Below are positions 2,370 through 12,167 of a DNA stretch of 19,824 nt, one piece after another. The stretch lies in IMG/VR virus record IMGVR_UViG_2585427788_000002; one strand, 5' to 3'. Under the pieces are notes generated by a model. It was not told the DNA's origin, ran no database searches, and was given only the letters and a program-made list of their open reading frames with translations. Position numbers and translations under genes: made by a program. This stretch comes from a virus. Taxonomy: Duplodnaviria > Heunggongvirae > Uroviricota > Caudoviricetes. The stretch's first letter is position 1. Each line of letters begins with the position of its first letter.

Positions 2370-2472
2370 TATTGCATCGTCTCCAGCATATATATCAATT
2401 AAGGCTCTGATTGATGTGTCTGAAAGCCTACACATAATAACTATGCCATCCGTTCCGTGCGGAGGTGAGGCT

Positions 2473-2688
2473 ATGAAATCCATGGACAAAATTTCAACAG
2501 GCATTGCCTACGGCACCTCCGCAGGCAGTGCTGGCTACTGGTTTTTACAGTTGCTCGATAGAGTAACTCCGTCACAGTGGGCTGCAATCGGTGTGCTGGG
2601 TAGTCTGGTATTTGGCCTGCTGACGTACCTGACAAACCTTTATTTCAAGATTAAAGAAGATAAGCGCAAGGCTGCGAGAGGTGAATAA
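2473..2688 (+). CDS. Class II pinholin, phage 21 S family, with dual-start (antiholin/holin) motif
   Basis: Strong RBS GGAGGTGAGG (2461-2470). N-terminus M-K-S-M-D-K gives two in-frame starts (2473 and 2482) as in the phage 21 S gene; two predicted TM helices; charged C-terminus [11 protein letters not shown]; stop overlaps the endolysin start (TAATG). Confidence 0.85.
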
Positions 2689-3185
2689 TGCCTCCATCAT
2701 TACGAAAAGTCGTTGCTGCTGCTATTGGTGGCGGAGCAATTGCTATAGCATCAGTGTTAATCACTGGCCCAAGTGGTAACGATGGTCTGGAAGGTGTCAG
2801 CTACATACCATACAAAGATATTGTTGGTGTATGGACTGTATGTCACGGGCATACAGGAAAAGACATCATGCTCGGTAAAACGTATACCAAAGCAGAATGC
2901 AAAGCCCTCCTGAATAAAGACCTTGCCACGGTCGCCAGACAAATTAACCCGTACATCAAAGTCGATATACCGGAAACAACGCGCGGCGCTCTTTACTCAT
3001 TCGTTTACAACGTGGGTGCTGGCAATTTCAGAACATCGACGCTTCTTCGCAAAATAAACCAGGGCGATATCAAAGGCGCATGTGATCAGCTACGTCGCTG
3101 GACATATGCTGGCGGTAAGCAATGGAAAGGTCTCATGACTCGTCGTGAGATTGAGCGTGAAATCTGTTTGTGGGGTCAGCAATGA
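2688..3185 (+). CDS. SAR endolysin (signal-anchor-release lysozyme, phage 21 R / T4-lysozyme family)
   Basis: N-terminal Gly/Ala-rich weak TM segment ([18 protein letters not shown]) followed by a lysozyme-type E-x8-D-x5-T catalytic spacing ([17 protein letters not shown]); directly downstream of the pinholin. Confidence 0.9.
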
Positions 3186-3646
3186 ACAGAGTAACCGCGA
3201 TTATCTCCGCTCTGGTTATCTGCATCGTCGTCTGCCTGTCATGGGGTGTTAATCATTACCGTGATAACGCCATCGCCTACAAAGAACAGCGCGACAAAAA
3301 TGCCAGAGAACTGAAGCTGGCGAACGCGGCAATTACTGACATGCAGATGCGTCAGCGTGATGTTGCTGCGCTCGATGCAAAATACACGAAGGAGTTAGCT
3401 GATGCGAAAGCTGAAAATGATGTTCTGCGTGATGATGTTGCCGCTGGTCGTCGTCGGTTGCACATCAAAGCAGTCTGTCAGTCAGTGCGTGAAGCCACCA
3501 CCGCCTCCGGCGTGGATAATGCAGCCTCCCCCCGACTGGCAGACACCGCTGAACGGGATTATTTCACCCTCCGGGAACGACTGGTAATGATGCAGGCCCA
3601 ACTTGAAGGTGCTCAGCAATACATAACCGAGCAGTGTTTAAAGTAA
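3182..3646 (+). CDS. Rz: Rz inner-membrane spanin (i-spanin)
   Basis: ATGA overlap with the endolysin stop; N-terminal TM helix ([16 protein letters not shown]) then a coiled-coil-type periplasmic domain; Rz1 is embedded in its +1 frame. Confidence 0.8.
3402..3587 (+). CDS. Rz1: Rz1 outer-membrane lipoprotein spanin (o-spanin), embedded in the +1 frame of Rz
   Basis: 61-aa ORF wholly inside Rz in another frame; lipobox LVVVGC|T; proline-rich mature region ([18 protein letters not shown]) typical of Rz1. Confidence 0.8.
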
Positions 3647-3783
3647 AATCTTAACTACAATATGATTCATTTTGATGATTGTTTCATAAGGAACAGTGAA
3701 GTAAGATCTAAGAGGAGTTAAATTTTATACAGTATAATCATAATATTGCAGCAAGGTGGTTATAATTGAAAGAATATTTAGAT

Positions 3784-5241
3784 ATGAATACATCTCATGT
3801 AAGAGTTGTTACTCATATGTGTGGGTTCCTGGTTTGGCTCTATAGTCTTTCAATGTTGCCACCAATGGTTGTAGCATTGTTTTATAAAGAAAAAAGCCTG
3901 TTCGTTTTCTTTATAACTTTCGTTATATTTTTTTGCATTGGTGGCGGAGCGTGGTATACAACTAAGAAATCTGGCATTCAATTACGTACCCGTGATGGGT
4001 TTATTATAATTGTAATGTTTTGGATTTTGTTTTCTGTTATTAGTGCATTCCCTTTATGGATTGACTCAGAACTTAATTTAACGTTCATTGATGCTCTGTT
4101 TGAAGGGGTTTCTGGAATAACAACAACAGGAGCAACTGTAATTGATGATGTTAGTTCATTACCTCGGGCATATTTGTACTATCGGTCACAGTTAAATTTT
4201 ATAGGTGGTTTAGGAGTTATTGTTCTGGCGGTTGCTGTATTGCCATTATTGGGTATTGGTGGTGCAAAGCTTTATCAGTCAGAAATGCCGGGGCCATTTA
4301 AGGATGACAAACTCACTCCCCGCCTGGCCGATACGTCACGGACACTGTGGATAACTTATTCTTTATTAGGTATTGCTTGTATTGTCTGTTATAGACTTGC
4401 AGGAATGCCTTTGTTTGATGCTATTTGTCACGGGATTTCCACAGTTTCGCTTGGTGGTTTCTCAACTCATAGCGAGAGTATCGGATATTTTAATAACTAT
4501 TTGGTTGAGCTGGTGGCTGGTTCTTTTTCCCTGCTATCGGCTTTCAACTTCACTCTTTGGTATATTGTTATTAGCAGGAAAACGATAAAACCTTTAATCA
4601 GAGATATTGAACTTCGTTTCTTTCTGTTAATAGCCTTAGGGGTGATCATTGTTACCTCTTTCCAGGTCTGGCATATAGGTATGTATGACTTGCATGGAAG
4701 TTTTATTCATTCGTTTTTTCTTGCCAGCTCCATGCTCACTGATAATGGTTTAGCTACGCAGGATTATGCAAGTTGGCCCACGCACACGATAGTGTTTTTG
4801 CTGTTGTCAAGTTTCTTTGGGGGATGTATAGGTTCAACTTGTGGTGGAATTAAGTCACTTCGATTTCTTATACTTTTCAAACAAAGCAAACACGAGATAA
4901 ATCAGCTTTCTCATCCCAGAGCGTTGTTGAGTGTAAATGTAGGAGGGAAGATAGTTACAGATCGTGTAATGAGGTCTGTATGGAGTTTCTTTTTTCTTTA
5001 TACTCTCTTCACGGTGTTTTTTATACTGGTGTTAAATGGTATGGGATATGATTTTCTTACATCATTTGCAACAGTGGCTGCATGTATTAATAATATGGGA
5101 TTAGGTTTTGGGGCTACTGCATCGTCATTCGGAGTGCTTAATGACATTGCAAAATGTTTAATGTGCATAGCTATGATTCTTGGTCGCCTTGAAATTTATC
5201 CTGTTATTATATTGTTTTCAGGTTTTTTTTGGCGCTCCTAA
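3784..5241 (+). CDS. trkG: TrkG, Trk-system K+ uptake membrane protein (Rac-prophage moron)
   Basis: Translation matches E. coli TrkG (from memory) along its length: multi-pass membrane protein with TrkH-family motifs. The gene is far more AT-rich than flanking phage DNA. Start placed at ATG 3784 (MNTSHVRVV...) rather than the upstream TTG at 3766. Confidence 0.9.
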   Translation: MNTSHVRVVTHMCGFLVWLYSLSMLPPMVVALFYKEKSLFVFFITFVIFFCIGGGAWYTTKKSGIQLRTRDGFIIIVMFWILFSVISAFPLWIDSELNLTFIDALFEGVSGITTTGATVIDDVSSLPRAYLYYRSQLNFIGGLGVIVLAVAVLPLLGIGGAKLYQSEMPGPFKDDKLTPRLADTSRTLWITYSLLGIACIVCYRLAGMPLFDAICHGISTVSLGGFSTHSESIGYFNNYLVELVAGSFSLLSAFNFTLWYIVISRKTIKPLIRDIELRFFLLIALGVIIVTSFQVWHIGMYDLHGSFIHSFFLASSMLTDNGLATQDYASWPTHTIVFLLLSSFFGGCIGSTCGGIKSLRFLILFKQSKHEINQLSHPRALLSVNVGGKIVTDRVMRSVWSFFFLYTLFTVFFILVLNGMGYDFLTSFATVAACINNMGLGFGATASSFGVLNDIAKCLMCIAMILGRLEIYPVIILFSGFFWRS

Positions 5242-5378: not shown

Positions 5379-6170
5379 ATGAGCGAGAAATTAAAGATAG
5401 TCTATCGCCCATTACAAGAATTGTCACCGTATGCGCACAACGCCAGGACGCACAGCCCTGAGCAGGTGGCACAACTGGTAGAAAGTATTAAGCAATTCGG
5501 CTGGACTAATCCGGTGCTGATTGACGAAAAGGGCGAAATTATTGCGGGTCACGGTCGTGTTATGGCGGCTGAAATGCTCAAAATGGATTCTGTTCCGGTC
5601 ATTGTTCTGTCTGGCCTGACGGATGAGCAGAAAAAGGCGTACCGCCTGGCAGATAATCGCCTGCCGATGAATGCTGGCTGGGATGAAGATCTGTTGCGGA
5701 TGGAGCTGTCGGACCTAATCAATGCTGATTTTGATGTCTCCCTGACAGGCTTCATCCCGACAGAAATTGATGAACTGTTGACGGATGTTTTGCCCGGTAC
5801 AGGAAATGAGGAGGAGCCGTATACGACGAAAATTGATACGCCTGTTTATGAGCCGTCGGGCGGTAAACCGGATATCAGTGAACTGTACGACGATACGAAA
5901 ACTCAGGAGCTGATCAGCCGGATACGTTCGGCGTCCCTTGAGCCTGATATTGAGAAATTCCTCCTGTGTGCGGCAGAACGTCACACGGTGTTTAATTTCA
6001 GCAGAATTGCGGACTATTACGCTCACGCCCCCTCTGAAATTCAGTGTTTTTTCGAGGAGTCGGCGCTGGTGATCATTGATTATCAGCAGGCTATTGAAAA
6101 TGGATTTGTCCGGATGACGCAGCGCATGGTGGAGATCATGCATGGTGGTGAGGAGGAGGAATATGCGTGA
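5379..6170 (+). CDS. ParB-like nuclease (ParB/Srx) domain protein
   Basis: The N-terminal ~110 aa (KIVYRPLQELSPYAHNARTHSPEQV...GEIIAGHGRVMAAEMLKMDSVPVIVL...RLADNRLPMNAGWDEDLL) has the ParB N-terminal domain signature seen at the N-terminus of many phage ParB-methyltransferase fusions. The C-terminal ~130 aa is unrecognised and ends in an acidic tail GGEEEEYA. Confidence 0.75.
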   Translation: MSEKLKIVYRPLQELSPYAHNARTHSPEQVAQLVESIKQFGWTNPVLIDEKGEIIAGHGRVMAAEMLKMDSVPVIVLSGLTDEQKKAYRLADNRLPMNAGWDEDLLRMELSDLINADFDVSLTGFIPTEIDELLTDVLPGTGNEEEPYTTKIDTPVYEPSGGKPDISELYDDTKTQELISRIRSASLEPDIEKFLLCAAERHTVFNFSRIADYYAHAPSEIQCFFEESALVIIDYQQAIENGFVRMTQRMVEIMHGGEEEEYA

Positions 6171-7095
6171 TGATTTTTGCGCCTTTATTCTGACTCACGG
6201 GCGACCGGACAAAGTTCTGACTTACCGGACGTTGCGTCGTGCTGGCTATACCGGGAAAATTTTTATCGTTGTTGATGATGAAGATAAGACACGAAATCAG
6301 TACATGGCTGAATTTGGTGAACAGGTGCTGGTGTTTTCCAAAGCCGATATCGCCAGTCGTTTTGACGAAGCCGATAATTTCTGTGACCGCCGCTCAATTT
6401 TTTACGCCCGTAATGCCTGTTTCGACCTGGCAAAACTGGTCGGGTGTAAATACTTCATTCAGCTCGATGATGATTATCACGAGTTCCAGTTTCGGGTGGA
6501 TCGCAACTATGACCAGGCCTATTTTCCGATAAGGAAACTGGATGCGATCCTTTCTGAAATGCTGGCGTACTACGAATCAATACCTGCTCTTTCCATCGCT
6601 ATGTCGCAGGGCGGGGATTTTCTTGGTGACAATGGCGGCCATGCTTCGTGGGTGAAACGCAAGGCAATGAACAGCTTTATCTGTTCGGTTGATCGACCGT
6701 TCTCATTCATGGGGCGCATTAACGAGGATGTGAATACGTACACGAATCTCGGTCGCTGTGGTGAATTGTTTATGACGATCGGTGCTGTCCAGTTAGGGCA
6801 GAAACAGACGCAGAAAAACAGCGGCGGAATGACCGAGCTGTATCTGGATTCCGGAACCTACGTTAAAAGTTTTTACTCCGTCATGTATGCGCCGTCGTGC
6901 GTAAAAATCTCACTGATGGGTGCCAGCCATAAACGCATTCACCATCAGGTCACCTGGAACAACGCTGCAGTAAAAATCCTTCACGAAAAATACAGGAAGA
7001 AGACACCCTGCATATCAATGGGGGTGACAAATGATTCCGTATTCGAAAGTCGAGTCTCTGGCAGCGTGCCGGATGACTGCACAACAAATCGCTGA
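6163..7095 (+). CDS. Hypothetical protein with DxD-type motifs (possible GT-A-like nucleotide-sugar transferase fold), translationally coupled to the ParB-like gene
   Basis: ATG 6163 about 6 nt after AGGAGG (6151-6156), overlapping the ParB-like stop. Contains IFIVVDDEDK and FIQLDDDYHE acidic motifs spaced as in GT-A folds; no methyltransferase motifs seen. The fold assignment is a guess. Confidence 0.5.
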   Translation: MRDDFCAFILTHGRPDKVLTYRTLRRAGYTGKIFIVVDDEDKTRNQYMAEFGEQVLVFSKADIASRFDEADNFCDRRSIFYARNACFDLAKLVGCKYFIQLDDDYHEFQFRVDRNYDQAYFPIRKLDAILSEMLAYYESIPALSIAMSQGGDFLGDNGGHASWVKRKAMNSFICSVDRPFSFMGRINEDVNTYTNLGRCGELFMTIGAVQLGQKQTQKNSGGMTELYLDSGTYVKSFYSVMYAPSCVKISLMGASHKRIHHQVTWNNAAVKILHEKYRKKTPCISMGVTNDSVFESRVSGSVPDDCTTNR

Positions 7096-7282
7096 CGTTC
7101 TGGATGTTGATCTGAACCGACTGAAAGAAAATCGGGAAGCAATGACAGATTTTTATGCGGCCATCCGTAAGGGCAGAGCGAAAGGTGAAGCCGAGTTACG
7201 AGCGGCATTGTTTAAGCTTGCCAGAAAAGGGGATGCCTTTGCTCTGCGCGAACTACTCAGGGTGGATAAAAATCAGGACTAA
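7031..7282 (+). CDS. Small hypothetical protein with HTH-like segment (MTAQQIADVLDVD); start uncertain (7031 or 7073)
   Basis: 83-aa ORF just upstream of terS; possible DNA-binding or packaging accessory protein; no confident family match by eye. Confidence 0.4.
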   Translation: MIPYSKVESLAACRMTAQQIADVLDVDLNRLKENREAMTDFYAAIRKGRAKGEAELRAALFKLARKGDAFALRELLRVDKNQD

Positions 7283-7285
7283 CTG

Positions 7286-8380
7286 ATGAGCAGACCGGAC
7301 TGGGGGGCGTTGCAGCAGGAGTATATTGCTGAATACACCCGCTCCGGTATATCTCCGGTGGCATGGTGTGAAGCAAGGGGACTGAATTACGCAACAGCCC
7401 GTCGTTACATCAAAAAAACTCCGAAAAATGCGCAGACAGAAATGTGCAAAACTGCGCAAAAAAGTGCGCAGAAAAAATCTGCGCAGACTGCACAAAAGCG
7501 GAACGAAAAATCTCAGGAAAAAAAGCCAGTATTCGATGCGGGCCTGAATGAGGGCGACGCGGAGGAATTTTCGTTCTGTCCCGATGAATTCGGCATTTCT
7601 GACCAGCAGGCTAAGTTTGCGATGCTTGTTGCTCAGGGTAAAAAGCCGACAGAGGCGTACCGACTAGCCGGTTATGAGGGGCAAGGTGCGACAGCTAACA
7701 GCAACGCCAGTCGTATGCTTAGAAATGCCAGGGTTTTTCGCGCTATCAGCTACTTCCGCAATCAGTACCAGAAACGCTATACCGCAGACCTGGATTTACT
7801 AGTGAGTCAGTTGATGGCTATTGTCCTGGCCGACCCCAATCAGCTTGCACAATTTCGCCGTGTTAACTGCCGTTATTGCTGGGGCGAGAATCATCTCTAC
7901 CAGTGGCGCGATATAGCAGAATTCGACAAGGCAGCGGCGCAGGCTTCCAGAGATGGCAAACCCGAACCGGAATATGGAGGCCTCGGCTTTGTTGATAACG
8001 CCATACCCAATCCGGACTGCCCGAAGTGCTGCGGTGAGGGAACGGGACAGCTTTATATGGCTGATACCACTCTGCTTGATGGGGATGCGCGGCAATTATA
8101 TGCAGGGGCAAAATTCGGAAAATTCGGCGTTGAGATCCTGCTGGAGGATAAGGCTGCCGCCCGGCGTGAATTGTTGCGTTTGTTTTCTGCTGGCGGGGCT
8201 TTATGTGCAGATAAACGGCTACAGGAACTGGAAATTGAACGGCGCAGAATGGAAAACCAGAAGCTGCGCAAAGAGATCGAAACGGTGGAAGATAATGAAC
8301 ATCCCCAGCCTGTGGCGATCAATATTAATGTGGTTGATGCCAGAGTAAGGAGTGATGAAGATGATCTCTCCGACGCTTAA
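7286..8380 (+). CDS. Terminase small subunit (TerS), with N-terminal HTH, low-complexity linker and C-terminal Cys cluster
   Basis: N-terminal HTH (GISPVAWCEARGLNYATARRYI); central region FAMLVAQGKKPTEAYRLAGYEGQGATANSNASRMLRNARV typical of small-terminase domains; sits immediately upstream of the large terminase. Confidence 0.75.
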   Translation: MSRPDWGALQQEYIAEYTRSGISPVAWCEARGLNYATARRYIKKTPKNAQTEMCKTAQKSAQKKSAQTAQKRNEKSQEKKPVFDAGLNEGDAEEFSFCPDEFGISDQQAKFAMLVAQGKKPTEAYRLAGYEGQGATANSNASRMLRNARVFRAISYFRNQYQKRYTADLDLLVSQLMAIVLADPNQLAQFRRVNCRYCWGENHLYQWRDIAEFDKAAAQASRDGKPEPEYGGLGFVDNAIPNPDCPKCCGEGTGQLYMADTTLLDGDARQLYAGAKFGKFGVEILLEDKAAARRELLRLFSAGGALCADKRLQELEIERRRMENQKLRKEIETVEDNEHPQPVAININVVDARVRSDEDDLSDA

Positions 8381-9662
8381 TGTGCCTCAGGCGCGATTTC
8401 TTTCAATGCCCCATAAATTTAAAGCCTATATTGCTGGTTTTGGCTCGGGCAAAACATGGGTTGGGTGTGGCGGCATATGCAAGGGGATTTGGGAGCATCC
8501 AGGTATAAATCAGGGATATTTTGCGCCAACGTATCCCCAAATTCGCGATATTTTTTACCCTACAGTGGAAGAAGTTGCTGCTGACTGGGGATTGAACGTA
8601 AAAATTAATGAGGGAAATAAAGAGGTTCACTTTTATTACGGACGCCAGTATCGGGGAACCACTATCTGCAGATCGATGGAGAAGCCACAAACGATCGTCG
8701 ATTTCAAAATTGGTAATGCGTTGGTGGATGAACTGGACATTTTGCCGAAGGAAAAAGCCAGAACGGCGTGGCGCAAGATAATTGCACGTATGCGTTATAA
8801 GATTGATGGACTTCGCAACGGTATTGACGTTACAACCACGCCGGAAGGATTCAAATTTGTCTACGAGCAGTTTGTTAAAGCCGTGCGTGAAAAAACAGAG
8901 CTGGCCTCACTGTATGGTCTGGTGCAGGCATCTACTTTCGATAATGAAAAGAACCTGCCAGCAGATTACATTCCTTCGCTTCTTGAATCATACCCTCCAG
9001 AGCTGATTAAAGCCTATCTTCGAGGACAGTTTACTAACCTGACAAGTGGTACTGTTTACCATCAGTTTGACCGGAAACTGAATAATTGCGAAGAAGTGGA
9101 GCAGCCAGGGGAGCCGATTTATATTGGGATGGATTTTAACGTTGGAAAGATGGCGGGAATCGTCCATGTGCTGCGTTTGGGGCTTCCATGTGCGGTAACT
9201 GAAATCATCAATGCCTACGATACGCCGGATATGATCCGCATCATTAAAGAACGCTTCTGGCTGTATGATGGGAATGATTACCGGAAAGTGAGGGAAATTT
9301 ATATTTATCCAGATGCTTCCGGGGATTCCAGAAAATCAAGTAACGCAAGTACGACGGATATAGCCCAGCTTAAGCAGGCTGGTTTTAACGTTGTGGTGAA
9401 CAGCTCGAACCCGCCAGTAAAAGATCGCGTTAACTCAATGAATGCAATGTTCTGCAATGCCAATGGTGAGCGTCGCTATAAAGTTAATGTGAAGCGTTGC
9501 CCGTTATATGCCGAATCTCTGGAGCAACAGGTCTGGGATGAGAAGGGGGAGCCTGATAAAAAATCTGGCAATGATCACCCGAATGATGCCGGAGGTTATT
9601 TCATCGTTAAGCAATTCCCTATTGTCAAACCGACCGGAAGAGTCACATCACTTCGGATTTAA
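8361..9662 (+). CDS. Terminase large subunit (TerL), ATPase plus nuclease
   Basis: Walker A AGFGSGKT near the N-terminus; C-terminal RNaseH-like nuclease region (YPDASGD); RBS AAGGAG (8347-8352) before ATG 8361. Alternative starts GTG 8352 and ATG 8355. Confidence 0.9.
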   Translation: MISPTLNVPQARFLSMPHKFKAYIAGFGSGKTWVGCGGICKGIWEHPGINQGYFAPTYPQIRDIFYPTVEEVAADWGLNVKINEGNKEVHFYYGRQYRGTTICRSMEKPQTIVDFKIGNALVDELDILPKEKARTAWRKIIARMRYKIDGLRNGIDVTTTPEGFKFVYEQFVKAVREKTELASLYGLVQASTFDNEKNLPADYIPSLLESYPPELIKAYLRGQFTNLTSGTVYHQFDRKLNNCEEVEQPGEPIYIGMDFNVGKMAGIVHVLRLGLPCAVTEIINAYDTPDMIRIIKERFWLYDGNDYRKVREIYIYPDASGDSRKSSNASTTDIAQLKQAGFNVVVNSSNPPVKDRVNSMNAMFCNANGERRYKVNVKRCPLYAESLEQQVWDEKGEPDKKSGNDHPNDAGGYFIVKQFPIVKPTGRVTSLRI

Positions 9663-9664
9663 TT

Positions 9665-11071
9665 ATGGCTGATATATCAACACCCAACCTCGACTATAAC
9701 GATATGCTGGAGGCGTGGGATATTAACGACGCACTGATGGGCGGTACGCTTGAAATGCGCAGGCAGGGGGAAAATTATCTCCCAAAATGGCCTAACGAAG
9801 ATGAAGACGCTTATAAAAAACGCCTGTCTGTGGCTACGCTACTTCCTGTGTATGAAGAAAGCATCAAGCAAAATATTGGGCGCATATTTGCAGAGCCGAC
9901 AGTATTGAGTGAGGAAACGCCGGCAAAAATCAGGGAATATGCAGAAAATATCGACATGGAGGGGAGCCGACTGGATGTGTGGGCGCAGCAATTTTTCAGC
10001 CTCGCATTTCAGTATGGTGTGGCACATGCGCTGGTGGACTATCCACGAACGGATATGAAAGAGATTCGTACAAAAGCCGATGAAAACGCGACCGGTGGTC
10101 GTCCGTACGTTACGATGCTGAATCCACGCCAGGTTATTGGATGGAAATCGAAAGTTGAAAAAGGGAAAGTTGTTCTCACTGATTTGCGTATAAAAGAGGT
10201 CATCATTATTGATGGTGATGATTTCGGGCAGAAGAAGGTGGAGCAGATCCGCCATATTATGCCCCGTCGAGTTGAAATTTATCGACGTAGCGAAGGCACT
10301 AATGGCGAATCTGTCTGGACGCTTCATGAGTCATGGAATACCAGCCGTGATGATATTCCTCTGGTAACACTGTACACGAAGAAAACAGGATTTATGCGTG
10401 GTACACCGCCATTGCTTAATCTTGGCTTGCTGAATATCAAGCACTGGCAAAGCCAGAGCGAGCAGGACAATATTCTTTATGTTACCCGCGTTCCATTGCT
10501 GGTGGCCTACGGGCTGGACAGGAATGAAGAACTGACGGTTGGTGCATCCACCGCTACGATTTTTGAGGACAGAACAAAAAATGGCCTCGAATATGTTGAA
10601 CATAGTGGCGCAGCGATAGAATCTGGCGAAACATCACTTGAGAAGCTGGAAAATCAGATGCGTCATGCCGGCGCTAAACTTCTGCGTGCTGAAAATACAT
10701 CCACCAAATCTGTTGATCAGACTAATGAAGAGCGAATGCAGGAAAACTCGCCGCTTTATACAATGGCGAACTCCCTCGAAGATGCCCTCGATAATATTCT
10801 CCAGATAATGGCGGAATGGATCGGAGAGAGTTGCGGTGGCAATGTGGATGTGCGCACTGAACTGGATGTATCTGCCCAGGTGTTTGACTCATCCTCCGCG
10901 CTGGCTGTTCAGTCATTGCGTCAGGGCGGTGATATACGTCAGATTGATGCGGTTCGGGTGTTGCAGGCGTTGAAATTTATCGATCAGGATTCCCGTCCAG
11001 AGGAAGTGATCGATGAATTAAAAAATCAGAGTGTAATGCTGATGGAAATCAATGATGCAAACCGTGAATGA
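9665..11071 (+). CDS. Portal protein (probable)
   Basis: 468-aa ORF starting 3 nt after the TerL stop and followed by an SPP1 gp7-like head-morphogenesis gene, which is the canonical position. Family not confirmed by motif. Confidence 0.7.
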   Translation: MADISTPNLDYNDMLEAWDINDALMGGTLEMRRQGENYLPKWPNEDEDAYKKRLSVATLLPVYEESIKQNIGRIFAEPTVLSEETPAKIREYAENIDMEGSRLDVWAQQFFSLAFQYGVAHALVDYPRTDMKEIRTKADENATGGRPYVTMLNPRQVIGWKSKVEKGKVVLTDLRIKEVIIIDGDDFGQKKVEQIRHIMPRRVEIYRRSEGTNGESVWTLHESWNTSRDDIPLVTLYTKKTGFMRGTPPLLNLGLLNIKHWQSQSEQDNILYVTRVPLLVAYGLDRNEELTVGASTATIFEDRTKNGLEYVEHSGAAIESGETSLEKLENQMRHAGAKLLRAENTSTKSVDQTNEERMQENSPLYTMANSLEDALDNILQIMAEWIGESCGGNVDVRTELDVSAQVFDSSSALAVQSLRQGGDIRQIDAVRVLQALKFIDQDSRPEEVIDELKNQSVMLMEINDANRE

Positions 11072-12167
11072 ACGGCTGCGTGATGAATCAATTGCTCATG
11101 CAGTCTGGATATCCCGCTATAGCACTGGCGTGGCTGCCAGAATGGTGAAAATACTGAATGACAGCGATGCGGAACTTACTGCTCGCCTGCTGATAGCACT
11201 GGACAGCCTCGATCCAGGTAATTTTACCGTTAAGCGCCTGGAGTCACTTCTGGCGAGCGTCAGAAAGGTTAACCGCACTGCTATTAACAGCATGTTTACC
11301 AGTCTCTCCGGAGAGCTGAACGAGCTGGCAATTTATGAGGCTGGTTATCAGTTAAGTCTGTTTGATTCTATGCTACCTGATTTTGTTGCTGATGTTCACC
11401 CTCTGGTTGGTATCTCTCCTGATGCACTTTATGCCGCTGCAATGGCGCGACCATTCCAGGGACGACTGCTCAGTGAGTGGGCCTCAGATCTTGAGGCGGA
11501 TCGGCTCAGACGCATAACAAATACAGTGCGTCAGGGTTTTTTGCTGGGGGATACCAATGAGCAGATCGCAAGAAAAATTCGGGGACATGTCAGTAAGGGA
11601 TTTCAGGATGGTGCATTGCAGATGAGCCGGGCTAATGCGGCCAGCATTGCAAAAACAGCGGTTGGACATCTTGCTGCTACTGCCCGTGAGAGTTTTGCCA
11701 GCGCGAATAATGATTTGATTAAGGGTAAGCAATGGTTATCAACGCTTGATAATCGTACTACGCCACAATGTCGAATCAGGGATCGCCTCAAATATACGCT
11801 GAATAATAAACCTGTAGGTCACAGCGTGCCTTATTTGCAGGGGCCGGGAAAAATTCATTTCTGCTGCCGCTCAACGGAAACGTTCATTCTGAAATCAGCG
11901 AAGGAACTGGGTATTGATGTTCGCGATATTTCCCCGGCTGAGCGGGCCAGCATGGATGGCGTGGTGGCCGGAGATACAACCTACAGGGAATGGTTTTTGC
12001 GTCAGCCTTACACCAGACAAAAACAGATTGTGGGGGAAACCCGAGCAAAGCTGATTCGGGATGGTGGTATGTCGCCAGATGAATTTTACACCGATAAAGG
12101 CGAATGGCTGACGCTGAAGCAGCTCCGTGAGCGTGATGCACAGGTATTCAGAAAAGCAGGGATTTAA
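11052..12167 (+). CDS. Head morphogenesis / minor capsid protein (SPP1 gp7 / Mu F-like)
   Basis: 371-aa ORF overlapping the portal 3' end by 20 nt; position and size fit gp7/F-like proteins. Assignment by context and general resemblance. Confidence 0.65.
   Translation: MMQTVNERLRDESIAHAVWISRYSTGVAARMVKILNDSDAELTARLLIALDSLDPGNFTVKRLESLLASVRKVNRTAINSMFTSLSGELNELAIYEAGYQLSLFDSMLPDFVADVHPLVGISPDALYAAAMARPFQGRLLSEWASDLEADRLRRITNTVRQGFLLGDTNEQIARKIRGHVSKGFQDGALQMSRANAASIAKTAVGHLAATARESFASANNDLIKGKQWLSTLDNRTTPQCRIRDRLKYTLNNKPVGHSVPYLQGPGKIHFCCRSTETFILKSAKELGIDVRDISPAERASMDGVVAGDTTYREWFLRQPYTRQKQIVGETRAKLIRDGGMSPDEFYTDKGEWLTLKQLRERDAQVFRKAGI

Follow-up and report, generated by a model that had tools for sequence, protein, structure and literature searches.

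We propose that an array of the palindromic hexamer TGCGCA, lying at positions 7429-7494 within the small terminase gene (terS) of a Rac-like lambdoid prophage of Escherichia coli, forms the recognition element of the pac site in this headful-packaging prophage, a reading to which we assign a probability of roughly three in four. The sequence analyzed, referred to here as the window, is the complete 19,824-nucleotide stretch of IMG/VR record IMGVR_UViG_2585427788_000002, which is an intact prophage. The array is very probably read by the N-terminal domain (N-domain) of the small terminase (TerS) that the same gene encodes, and it would represent a relative or variant of the P1-type pac site, with the same reader domain and layout but with a different hexamer, a single cluster, no Dam control, and portability between unrelated small-terminase cores. 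A first-pass annotation, made from the letters of the window alone, had suggested that the cluster might be a pac or TerS recognition site, and this proposal gains support from comparative evidence, which includes the constraint on the DNA, the co-variation of the hexamer with a putative recognition helix, and an N-domain that appears to be homologous to part of P1 PacA.

The TGCGCA Array Within terS

Reading of the sequence and a pattern search both place perfect TGCGCA copies at 7429-7434, 7453-7458, 7465-7470, and 7480-7485 (copies 1, 3, 4, and 5), exactly as the first-pass annotation had listed them, and the first of these is coded as N-A-Q. Two degenerate copies, each with one mismatch, complete a set of six. 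Copy 2 is TGTGCA at 7443-7448, one base before the start previously given for it (7444), and copy 6 is TGCACA at 7489-7494, for which the same bases had been listed as CTGCAC at 7488 and are better read with a one-base shift. Copy 2 is a perfect TGCGCA in most relatives, where it is in another frame and coded as M-R, and copy 6 is perfect in many of them. The start-to-start spacing across the six copies is 14, 10, 12, 15, and 9 bp, rather than the 12-15 bp first described, and the A-run thought to follow every copy directly follows some of them and not others. The hexamers occupy terS codons 48-70, the linker peptide encoded by the array is the AQK-rich KNAQTEMCKTAQKSAQKKSAQTAQK, and the earlier placement of the repeats within the linker-coding part of terS holds, as judged by the translation of the open reading frame (ORF) at 7286-8380 and its matches to PF03592 and phrog_51.

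TGCGCA occurs an ordinary number of times in the window as a whole (11 in 19.8 kb vs. 8.4 expected) and what is unusual is its clustering: 4 of the 11 copies are packed into 57 bp, and 4 in 60 bp compares with a maximum of 2 in 400 first-order Markov simulations. Tandem Repeats Finder calls the segment 7424-7497, the next TGCGCA past the array is at 8265, and the array in the window is a single cluster. GATC is absent from 7420-7500, as read from the sequence. The array is contained within an A-rich linker segment of the + strand (7383-7545) that has no stop triplet in any of the three forward frames, and its 162 nt exceed every other stretch of this kind in the window, where the mean is 22.6.

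Some TerS variants in the databases have linkers that hop across all three frames (e.g., P0010, P0019, P0021, P0031, and P0036) and truncations consisting of the N-domain only are also found (P0121, with 25 member sequences). These may represent either real slippage at the A-runs or homopolymer sequencing errors. The terS gene of phage Rac-SA53 (L002, KU052037; 2412-3440) is annotated as a 'gpO-terS fusion by deletion', and since its likeness to the window starts at 7438, within the hexamer array, this terS is without the N-domain and the first hexamer.

Constraint on the DNA Rather Than the Protein

Comparison of related genes shows the TGCGCA repeat to be constrained as DNA and not as protein, a conclusion drawn at the level of sequence from an excess of copies over synonymous expectation, the use of three reading frames, variable spacers around an exact hexamer, and an intergenic array. 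When synonymous codons were resampled with the linker amino acids fixed and with the codon usage of the phage itself, the window linker had 4 TGCGCA compared to 0.43 expected (P = 2.5e-4), and the same procedure applied to 48 distinct related linkers gave 198 observed and 23.8 expected, an approximately 8-fold excess. The hexamer can be written as xxT-GCG-CAx (A-Q), xTG-CGC-Axx (M-R or L-R), and TGC-GCA (C-A), and over 73 unique homologues these frames are used 304, 81, and 32 times, respectively. The spacers between hexamers are A-rich, 7-16 bp in length, and variable in sequence, while the hexamer is exact throughout.

Relatives with 37-75% identity in the N-domain keep four to nine exact TGCGCA despite very different linker peptides, and in the TerS proteins of Superficieibacter, Serratia, and Buttiauxella (52-55% identical) the linker peptides are quite unlike that of the window and yet 4-5 exact TGCGCA are in the same place. 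This is the opposite of a linker peptide that is conserved while synonymous changes destroy the DNA repeats, the pattern that the first-pass annotation had set against its own proposal. In addition, one IMG/VR locus (IMGVR_UViG; L116) contains six TGCGCA in a 70-bp intergenic spacer (reverse strand, 3652-3721) that directly precedes the lysis genes and lies 1.9 kb upstream of a TerS with an N-domain whose linker has no TGCGCA, and hence an array can exist outside of coding DNA.

The N-Domain and Its Co-Variation With the Hexamer

TerS (364 amino acids; 7286-8380, + strand) is comprised of the N-domain (aa 1-44), a low-complexity linker (approximately aa 45-100), and a Terminase_2 core (aa 122-321; 7649-8248, + strand) with a Cys-rich insertion (CRYCW...CPKCC). 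Its assignment as a Terminase_2 small terminase comes from matches to PF03592 (34.5 bits vs. a cutoff of 26.1) and phrog_51 (E = 1.7e-75). The helix-turn-helix (HTH) of the Terminase_2 family is found at approximately aa 105-160 (phrog_641, with a weak match to the Pam5 TerS structure) and not at the extreme N-terminus, as the extra N-domain and the linker precede it. A sequence search of the Protein Data Bank (PDB) with TerS gave only a weak match, that of the Terminase_2 HTH to a TerS structure.

The N-domain itself (7286-7417, codons 1-44, + strand) is the proposed reader of the hexamer. An AlphaFold2 model of aa 1-51, with a predicted local distance difference test score (pLDDT) of 81.5, contains helices at residues 6-20, 24-30, and 35-41, which form an HTH in which residues 39 and 40 lie in the third, recognition-type helix. 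A model of the full-length protein made without an alignment is poor (pLDDT 45) and was used for helix positions only. As the weak Foldseek matches to the N-domain model are mostly generic HTH DNA-binding domains, we limit the structural claim to a three-helix HTH. Helix 3 (7388-7417, codons 35-44, + strand; YATARRYIKK, including R39) is the putative recognition helix based on its co-variation with the hexamer, described below. Pfam contains no family for the N-domain, and a protein homologue search with its 46-aa sequence returned truncated fragments only. Homologues of the N-domain are represented by 231 cluster representatives at E <= 1e-3, and among the 150 representatives listed it is located at or near the N-terminus in almost all.

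The association between domain and hexamer was surveyed from both directions. When IMG/VR was scanned motif-first for three TGCGCA with gaps of 4-10 nt, the N-domain (37-100% identical to TerS aa 1-44) was found in 80 of 120 loci, and in all 80 but L116, where the distance is 1.9 kb, its end lies 5-60 bp upstream of the cluster and both are on one strand. The 40 loci without the N-domain include one that is cut at the contig end (L100); most of the others resemble tandem repeats or GC-rich DNA, and L017, L094, L107, and L135 carry clusters with A-rich flanks. From the protein side, a scan of 80 loci showed that 71 of the 79 scored have four to eight TGCGCA within the next 150 nt, against a background density of 0.55 per kb. 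The eight that lack TGCGCA all have a helix 3 of the form ...NYA[ST]AKRYIK[IV], in which R39 is replaced by lysine (R39K), and the repeated units in their linkers are TGCGAA and the palindrome TGCGAATTCGCA. The reciprocal motif-first scan for two copies of TGCGAATTCGCA found the N-domain in 96 of 103 loci, with K39 in 95 of these and R39 in none, the remaining one being a truncated fragment.

These surveys were pooled into 184 unique N-domain-plus-linker sequences, in which helix 3 with ARR is paired with TGCGCA in 98 of 100 cases (the two exceptions are a decayed remnant and L116), AKR with TGCGAA/TTCGCA in all 76, and ART, the form found in phage 933W, with GATCAT in all eight. R39 is the residue seen to co-vary with the hexamer: where backbones are otherwise identical, R39K goes along with a switch from TGCGCA to TGCGAA/TTCGCA. 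Over residues 1-33, K39 and R39 domains agree at 30-33 positions, with one backbone fully identical, so that the difference in specificity maps to residues 34-44. Both ARR and AKR are found on phrog_51 (Rac type) and phrog_370 (933W type) cores and ARR also on phrog_1482 and phrog_32222 cores, and all eight ART sequences are on the 933W-type core. Rac-type core homologues that have no N-domain have no arrays. Hence the hexamer follows the N-domain and not the core.

Phage 933W (L136, AF125520; 2630-2690) and its Stx relatives contain four [C/T]GATCAT with an exact 12-bp spacing, which encode IDHE IDHK TDHE IDHD right after a divergent N-domain with the helix-3 variant NTARTRIKM. With their Dam sites, these hexamers are very similar to the pac repeats of P1, and they constitute a predicted pac site for the Shiga-toxin phages. 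The DNA of phage 933W, which has the N-domain and a GATC-containing array, is terminally redundant, and the phage carries out generalized transduction (PMC3752737). A motif-first scan for three GATCAT returned mostly unrelated DNA, with the N-domain in 20 of 120 loci. Two TGCGCA-like copies are also present farther downstream of the GATCAT repeats in 933W-type TerS.

Other arrangements were seen among the relatives. Within the first 300 nt of terS, four loci (L020, L022, L037, and L044) have two groups of TGCGCA or up to 10 copies over 150 bp; the two-group relatives L020 and L022 have clusters of 4 and 3-5 copies (e.g., 4 + 3 about 50 bp apart), which recall the bipartite 4 + 3 pac of P1. The K39-type N-domains of P0244, P0249, and P0250 ('LNF[AS][TS]AKRYIKK') are followed by linkers with ENCES.../ENCETNCESA, and these, judging from the protein only, would place TGCGAA in the C-E frame. 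Three loci, L008 and L009 (Erwinia, Izhakiella) and L551, have Rac-type cores with a different N-terminal domain (MSKPDEKAIERDF...YGITIKALRYMAGKKGW), and their linker DNA contains four GGGGCA followed by inverted TGCCCC/GCCCC. The domain and the GGGGCA array in these three loci may be a further reader/site pair, a class that is anecdotal since a motif-first scan for three GGGGCA yielded 1 of 120 loci.

Comparison With Known Packaging Sites

The closest parallel to the array in terS is the pac site of phage P1. The profile of the N-domain aligns with aa 3-40 of P1 PacA with an hhalign probability of 91.5% (E = 8.8e-7, 38 columns), the pairwise BLASTP match is weak (E = 0.045), and the two share the motif LN..TARRY[IL]; the N-domain thus appears to be homologous to the N-terminus of PacA. 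The layout is also shared, in that both have an array of 6-bp repeats inside the small terminase gene, in linker-coding DNA shortly after an N-terminal HTH. In P1 the hexamers (TGATCA/G) are located at pacA codons 65-77 and 108-125 and the annotated cleavage sites are at approximately pacA codon 93. As described in PMC10028697, citing Sternberg and Coulby, there are seven hexamers with Dam sites in the experimentally defined 161-bp pac site. Where P1 has TGATCA/G the window has TGCGCA, and as this contains no GATC, the window array would be without the control by Dam methylation. Outside of the N-domain, BLASTP detects no similarity between TerS of the window and PacA, nor does it detect any between the large terminase (TerL) of the window and PacB.

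The SPP1/SF6 small terminase, G1P, belongs like TerS of the window to the Terminase_2 family of Pfam, and the SPP1/SF6 pac region (pacL/pacC/pacR) also overlaps the 5' part of terS and contains short direct repeats in bendable, A-tract-rich DNA (PMC4737164). TerS of the window differs from G1P in having the extra N-terminal HTH and linker ahead of the Terminase_2 HTH. Moreover, the window repeats are exact, palindromic, and strongly conserved, whereas those of SPP1/SF6 are poorly conserved and the DNA-binding domain binds non-specifically (PMC4737164).

The headful phages P22 and Sf6 likewise have a recognition site embedded in the coding sequence of their own terS (PMC9611059), as is proposed here. 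However, the P22 pac is a single asymmetric 22-bp sequence rather than a hexamer array, and the folds and DNA-binding parts of the P22 and Sf6 TerS proteins are unrelated to the N-domain. In phage lambda, the short repeats R1-R3 of cosB are read by the N-terminal winged HTH of gpNu1, which positions the large subunit. Lambda resembles the proposed arrangement in having several short repeats with an N-terminal small-terminase HTH as the reader, but it is a cos system with defined cohesive ends, and its sites are beside the Nu1 gene while the window array is in a linker-coding segment.

Proposed Mechanism and Alternative Explanations

We envisage TerS as an N-terminal HTH (aa 1-44) and a flexible AQK-rich linker attached to a Terminase_2 core, in which the DNA coding for the linker would itself be the array of binding sites. 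Helix 3 (YATARRYIKK) would read the palindromic TGCGCA, and in a TerS oligomer several N-domains on their flexible linkers would engage several hexamers located about one helical turn apart, such that the hexamers, separated by A-tracts, would allow a cooperative and specific capture or marking of phage DNA. TerL (8352-9662), presumably acting as nuclease and motor, would then be recruited, a first cut would be made nearby, and headful packaging would follow. TerL is of the Terminase_6N/6C (T4-like) type (PF03237, 6.8e-31; PF17289, 3.4e-10), in keeping with headful (pac) packaging. In this scheme we infer the physical binding, the role in initiating packaging, the oligomerization of TerS and its oligomeric engagement of the array, the position of cleavage, and the direction of packaging.

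Several observations weigh against this assignment. In P1 the hexamers form two halves, of 4 and 3, that flank an IHF site and the site of cutting, while the window has one cluster, and two of the six window copies have decayed, while all of the relatives examined keep at least four perfect copies. A Foldseek comparison of the N-domain model with PDB structures yielded nothing significant (best E = 0.8), and for the SPP1-like Terminase_2 TerS proteins, work in vitro did not succeed in showing sequence-specific binding to the repeats (PMC4737164, PMC9611059). Most of the loci surveyed were ascertained by motif, and few independent switches (ARR/AKR, ART, and PacA) underlie the co-variation. A simple 'residue 39 code' was considered and dropped, since the helix 3 of PacA has ARRY and yet reads TGATCA, so that residue 39 by itself cannot serve as a transferable code. 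Finally, deposited records of near-identical phages (ON4705xx), which come from prophage analyses, have their ends away from the array.

Among the alternatives, the one that survives best, although we consider it unlikely, is that the N-domain of TerS binds the array for autoregulation of the late/packaging operon, as a transcriptional roadblock or by cis-tethering, rather than for packaging initiation. The site is within the gene of the protein itself, HTH proteins with binding arrays inside or close to the genes that encode them are often autoregulators, and the L116 array has a promoter-like intergenic position just upstream of lysis genes. Against regulation is the fusion of the N-domain to a small-terminase core wherever the core can be classified, in at least four unrelated families, together with the use of an equivalent array as pac by the apparent homologue PacA; in addition, TerS is not known to have any sequence-specific function other than the recognition of pac or cos (PMC9611059).

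We regard as less probable still a model, as for SPP1/SF6, in which the ring of Terminase_2 HTHs recognizes the array as intrinsically bent DNA and the N-domain reads no specific bases. The core of TerS is indeed Terminase_2, and the alternation of A-runs of 4-7 with GCGC cores at a spacing of approximately 9-15 bp matches the description of SPP1-like pac DNA and also fits the picture of bent DNA wrapped on a TerS ring (PMC4737164). Yet the exact hexamer follows the class of N-domain across cores, including those that are not Terminase_2, core homologues without the N-domain have no arrays, and the TGCGCA and TGCGAA arrays, with similar A-rich flanks, segregate perfectly with R39 and K39. Bending alone would thus appear to leave the co-variation of hexamer and helix 3 unexplained.

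It is very unlikely, in our view, that the segment of A-runs and hexamers is primarily a contingency or recombination hotspot, for switching terS on and off by frameshift or for shuffling N-domains, with recognition being secondary. Such a role would be in keeping with the 162 nt that are open in all three frames (the window maximum), the frame-hopping linkers and N-domain-only truncations (P0121, 25 members), the junction of the Rac-SA53 'gpO-terS fusion' inside the array at about 7438, and the shuffled cores. However, the frame-shifted forms are rare singletons, set against in-frame clusters with 357-1423 members, and could stem from errors in the sequencing of homopolymers, and neither the exact conservation of the hexamer nor its co-variation with helix 3 is explained. 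Least probable of all, to the point that we give it almost no weight, is an extension of the alternative raised in the first-pass annotation, whereby the repeat is a by-product of a low-complexity AQK-rich linker, formed for example by replication slippage and without any function as DNA: the segment does encode such a linker between two folded domains, the copy number differs among relatives, and A-run indels are common, but the idea is contradicted by conservation that is independent of frame, with the hexamer kept in three frames and in very different peptides, in 8-fold more copies than the protein requires, exact between spacers that vary in length and sequence, present in the intergenic array of L116, and co-varying with helix 3.

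A Possible Packaging-Specificity Cassette and Its Implications

We are tentative about a broader idea, which we judge to be a little less than evenly balanced, that helix 3 (codons 35-44) and the array, which is 12 bp further on, constitute a self-contained and co-inherited packaging-specificity cassette, in effect an evolvable 'packaging address code' of Rac-like, Stx (933W-type), and P1-like phages. Under this proposal the cassette can move between at least four unrelated small-terminase cores, and a few substitutions in helix 3 can re-set its specificity. The linker amino acids would largely be dictated by the DNA site that they encode, which would account for the AQK, ANSQK, and IDHE peptide repeats and for the segment that is open in three frames. 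With the site located in the gene itself, the nascent N-domain would emerge from coupled transcription and translation beside its target, and this could favor packaging in cis.

The N-domain family bears on the question of how pac-type small terminases pick viral DNA; in P22, Sf6, and SPP1/SF6, specific binding of TerS to pac has proved difficult to show (reviewed in PMC9611059; PMC4737164). The family offers an unusually clean case, with a small, separable HTH, an exact palindromic hexamer in 4-9 copies, and naturally occurring variants in specificity with only one to three changed residues in helix 3. In practical terms, the analysis provides a concrete predicted pac site for the Rac-like terS region, and the GATCAT variant extends the prediction to the 933W-type Shiga-toxin phages. 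Lateral and generalized transduction would begin at the predicted sites, and pseudo-pac sites in the host could be predicted from hexamer arrays. The linker would also be a case of overlapping codes, in which a protein sequence is predicted to be set by an embedded DNA-binding site. A search of the full-text literature found no description of the motif, the N-domain family, or a pac site of Rac-like or 933W-type phages.

Genomic Context of terS

The terS region is present in 906 of 5,426 complete E. coli genomes, and E. coli ECCHD184 has a copy that is 100% identical to the window with a matching annotation. The closest cultured relatives are the Kagunavirus and Jersey-like siphoviruses. Upstream of terS, the window contains a lysis cassette (2416-3646), trkG (3766-5241), a gene for a ynaK-like ParB_N protein of 263 aa (5379-6170, + strand), and one for a glycosyltransferase of the TET-associated type (6142-7095, + strand; PF20691, E = 8e-35), which matches phrog_842 ('beta-glucosyl-HMC-alpha-glucosyltransferase'). 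Downstream are TerL (8352-9662, + strand; Terminase_6N and 6C), the portal protein (9665-11071), and a MuF-like head protein (11052-12167), with further head and tail genes after it.

The ParB_N protein and glycosyltransferase pair, located between trkG and terS (5379-7095), may represent a DNA-modification module; the window showed no TET or methyltransferase gene. Directly 5' of terS, an ORF of 83 aa (7031-7282, + strand) overlaps the end of the glycosyltransferase gene and matches positions 145-218 of the 319 in phrog_309 (E = 8e-23), which is annotated as 'terminase small subunit' and is a different family. This ORF may encode a second protein of the TerS kind or may be a remnant, and PGAP annotates a shortened form of it as hypothetical. 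Lastly, Actinobacillus phage vB_Apl-pPE4 (PP818812), from Actinobacillus pleuropneumoniae, has 93% nucleotide identity to the E. coli terS core (window 7580-8170), which is unexpectedly high given its Actinobacillus host.

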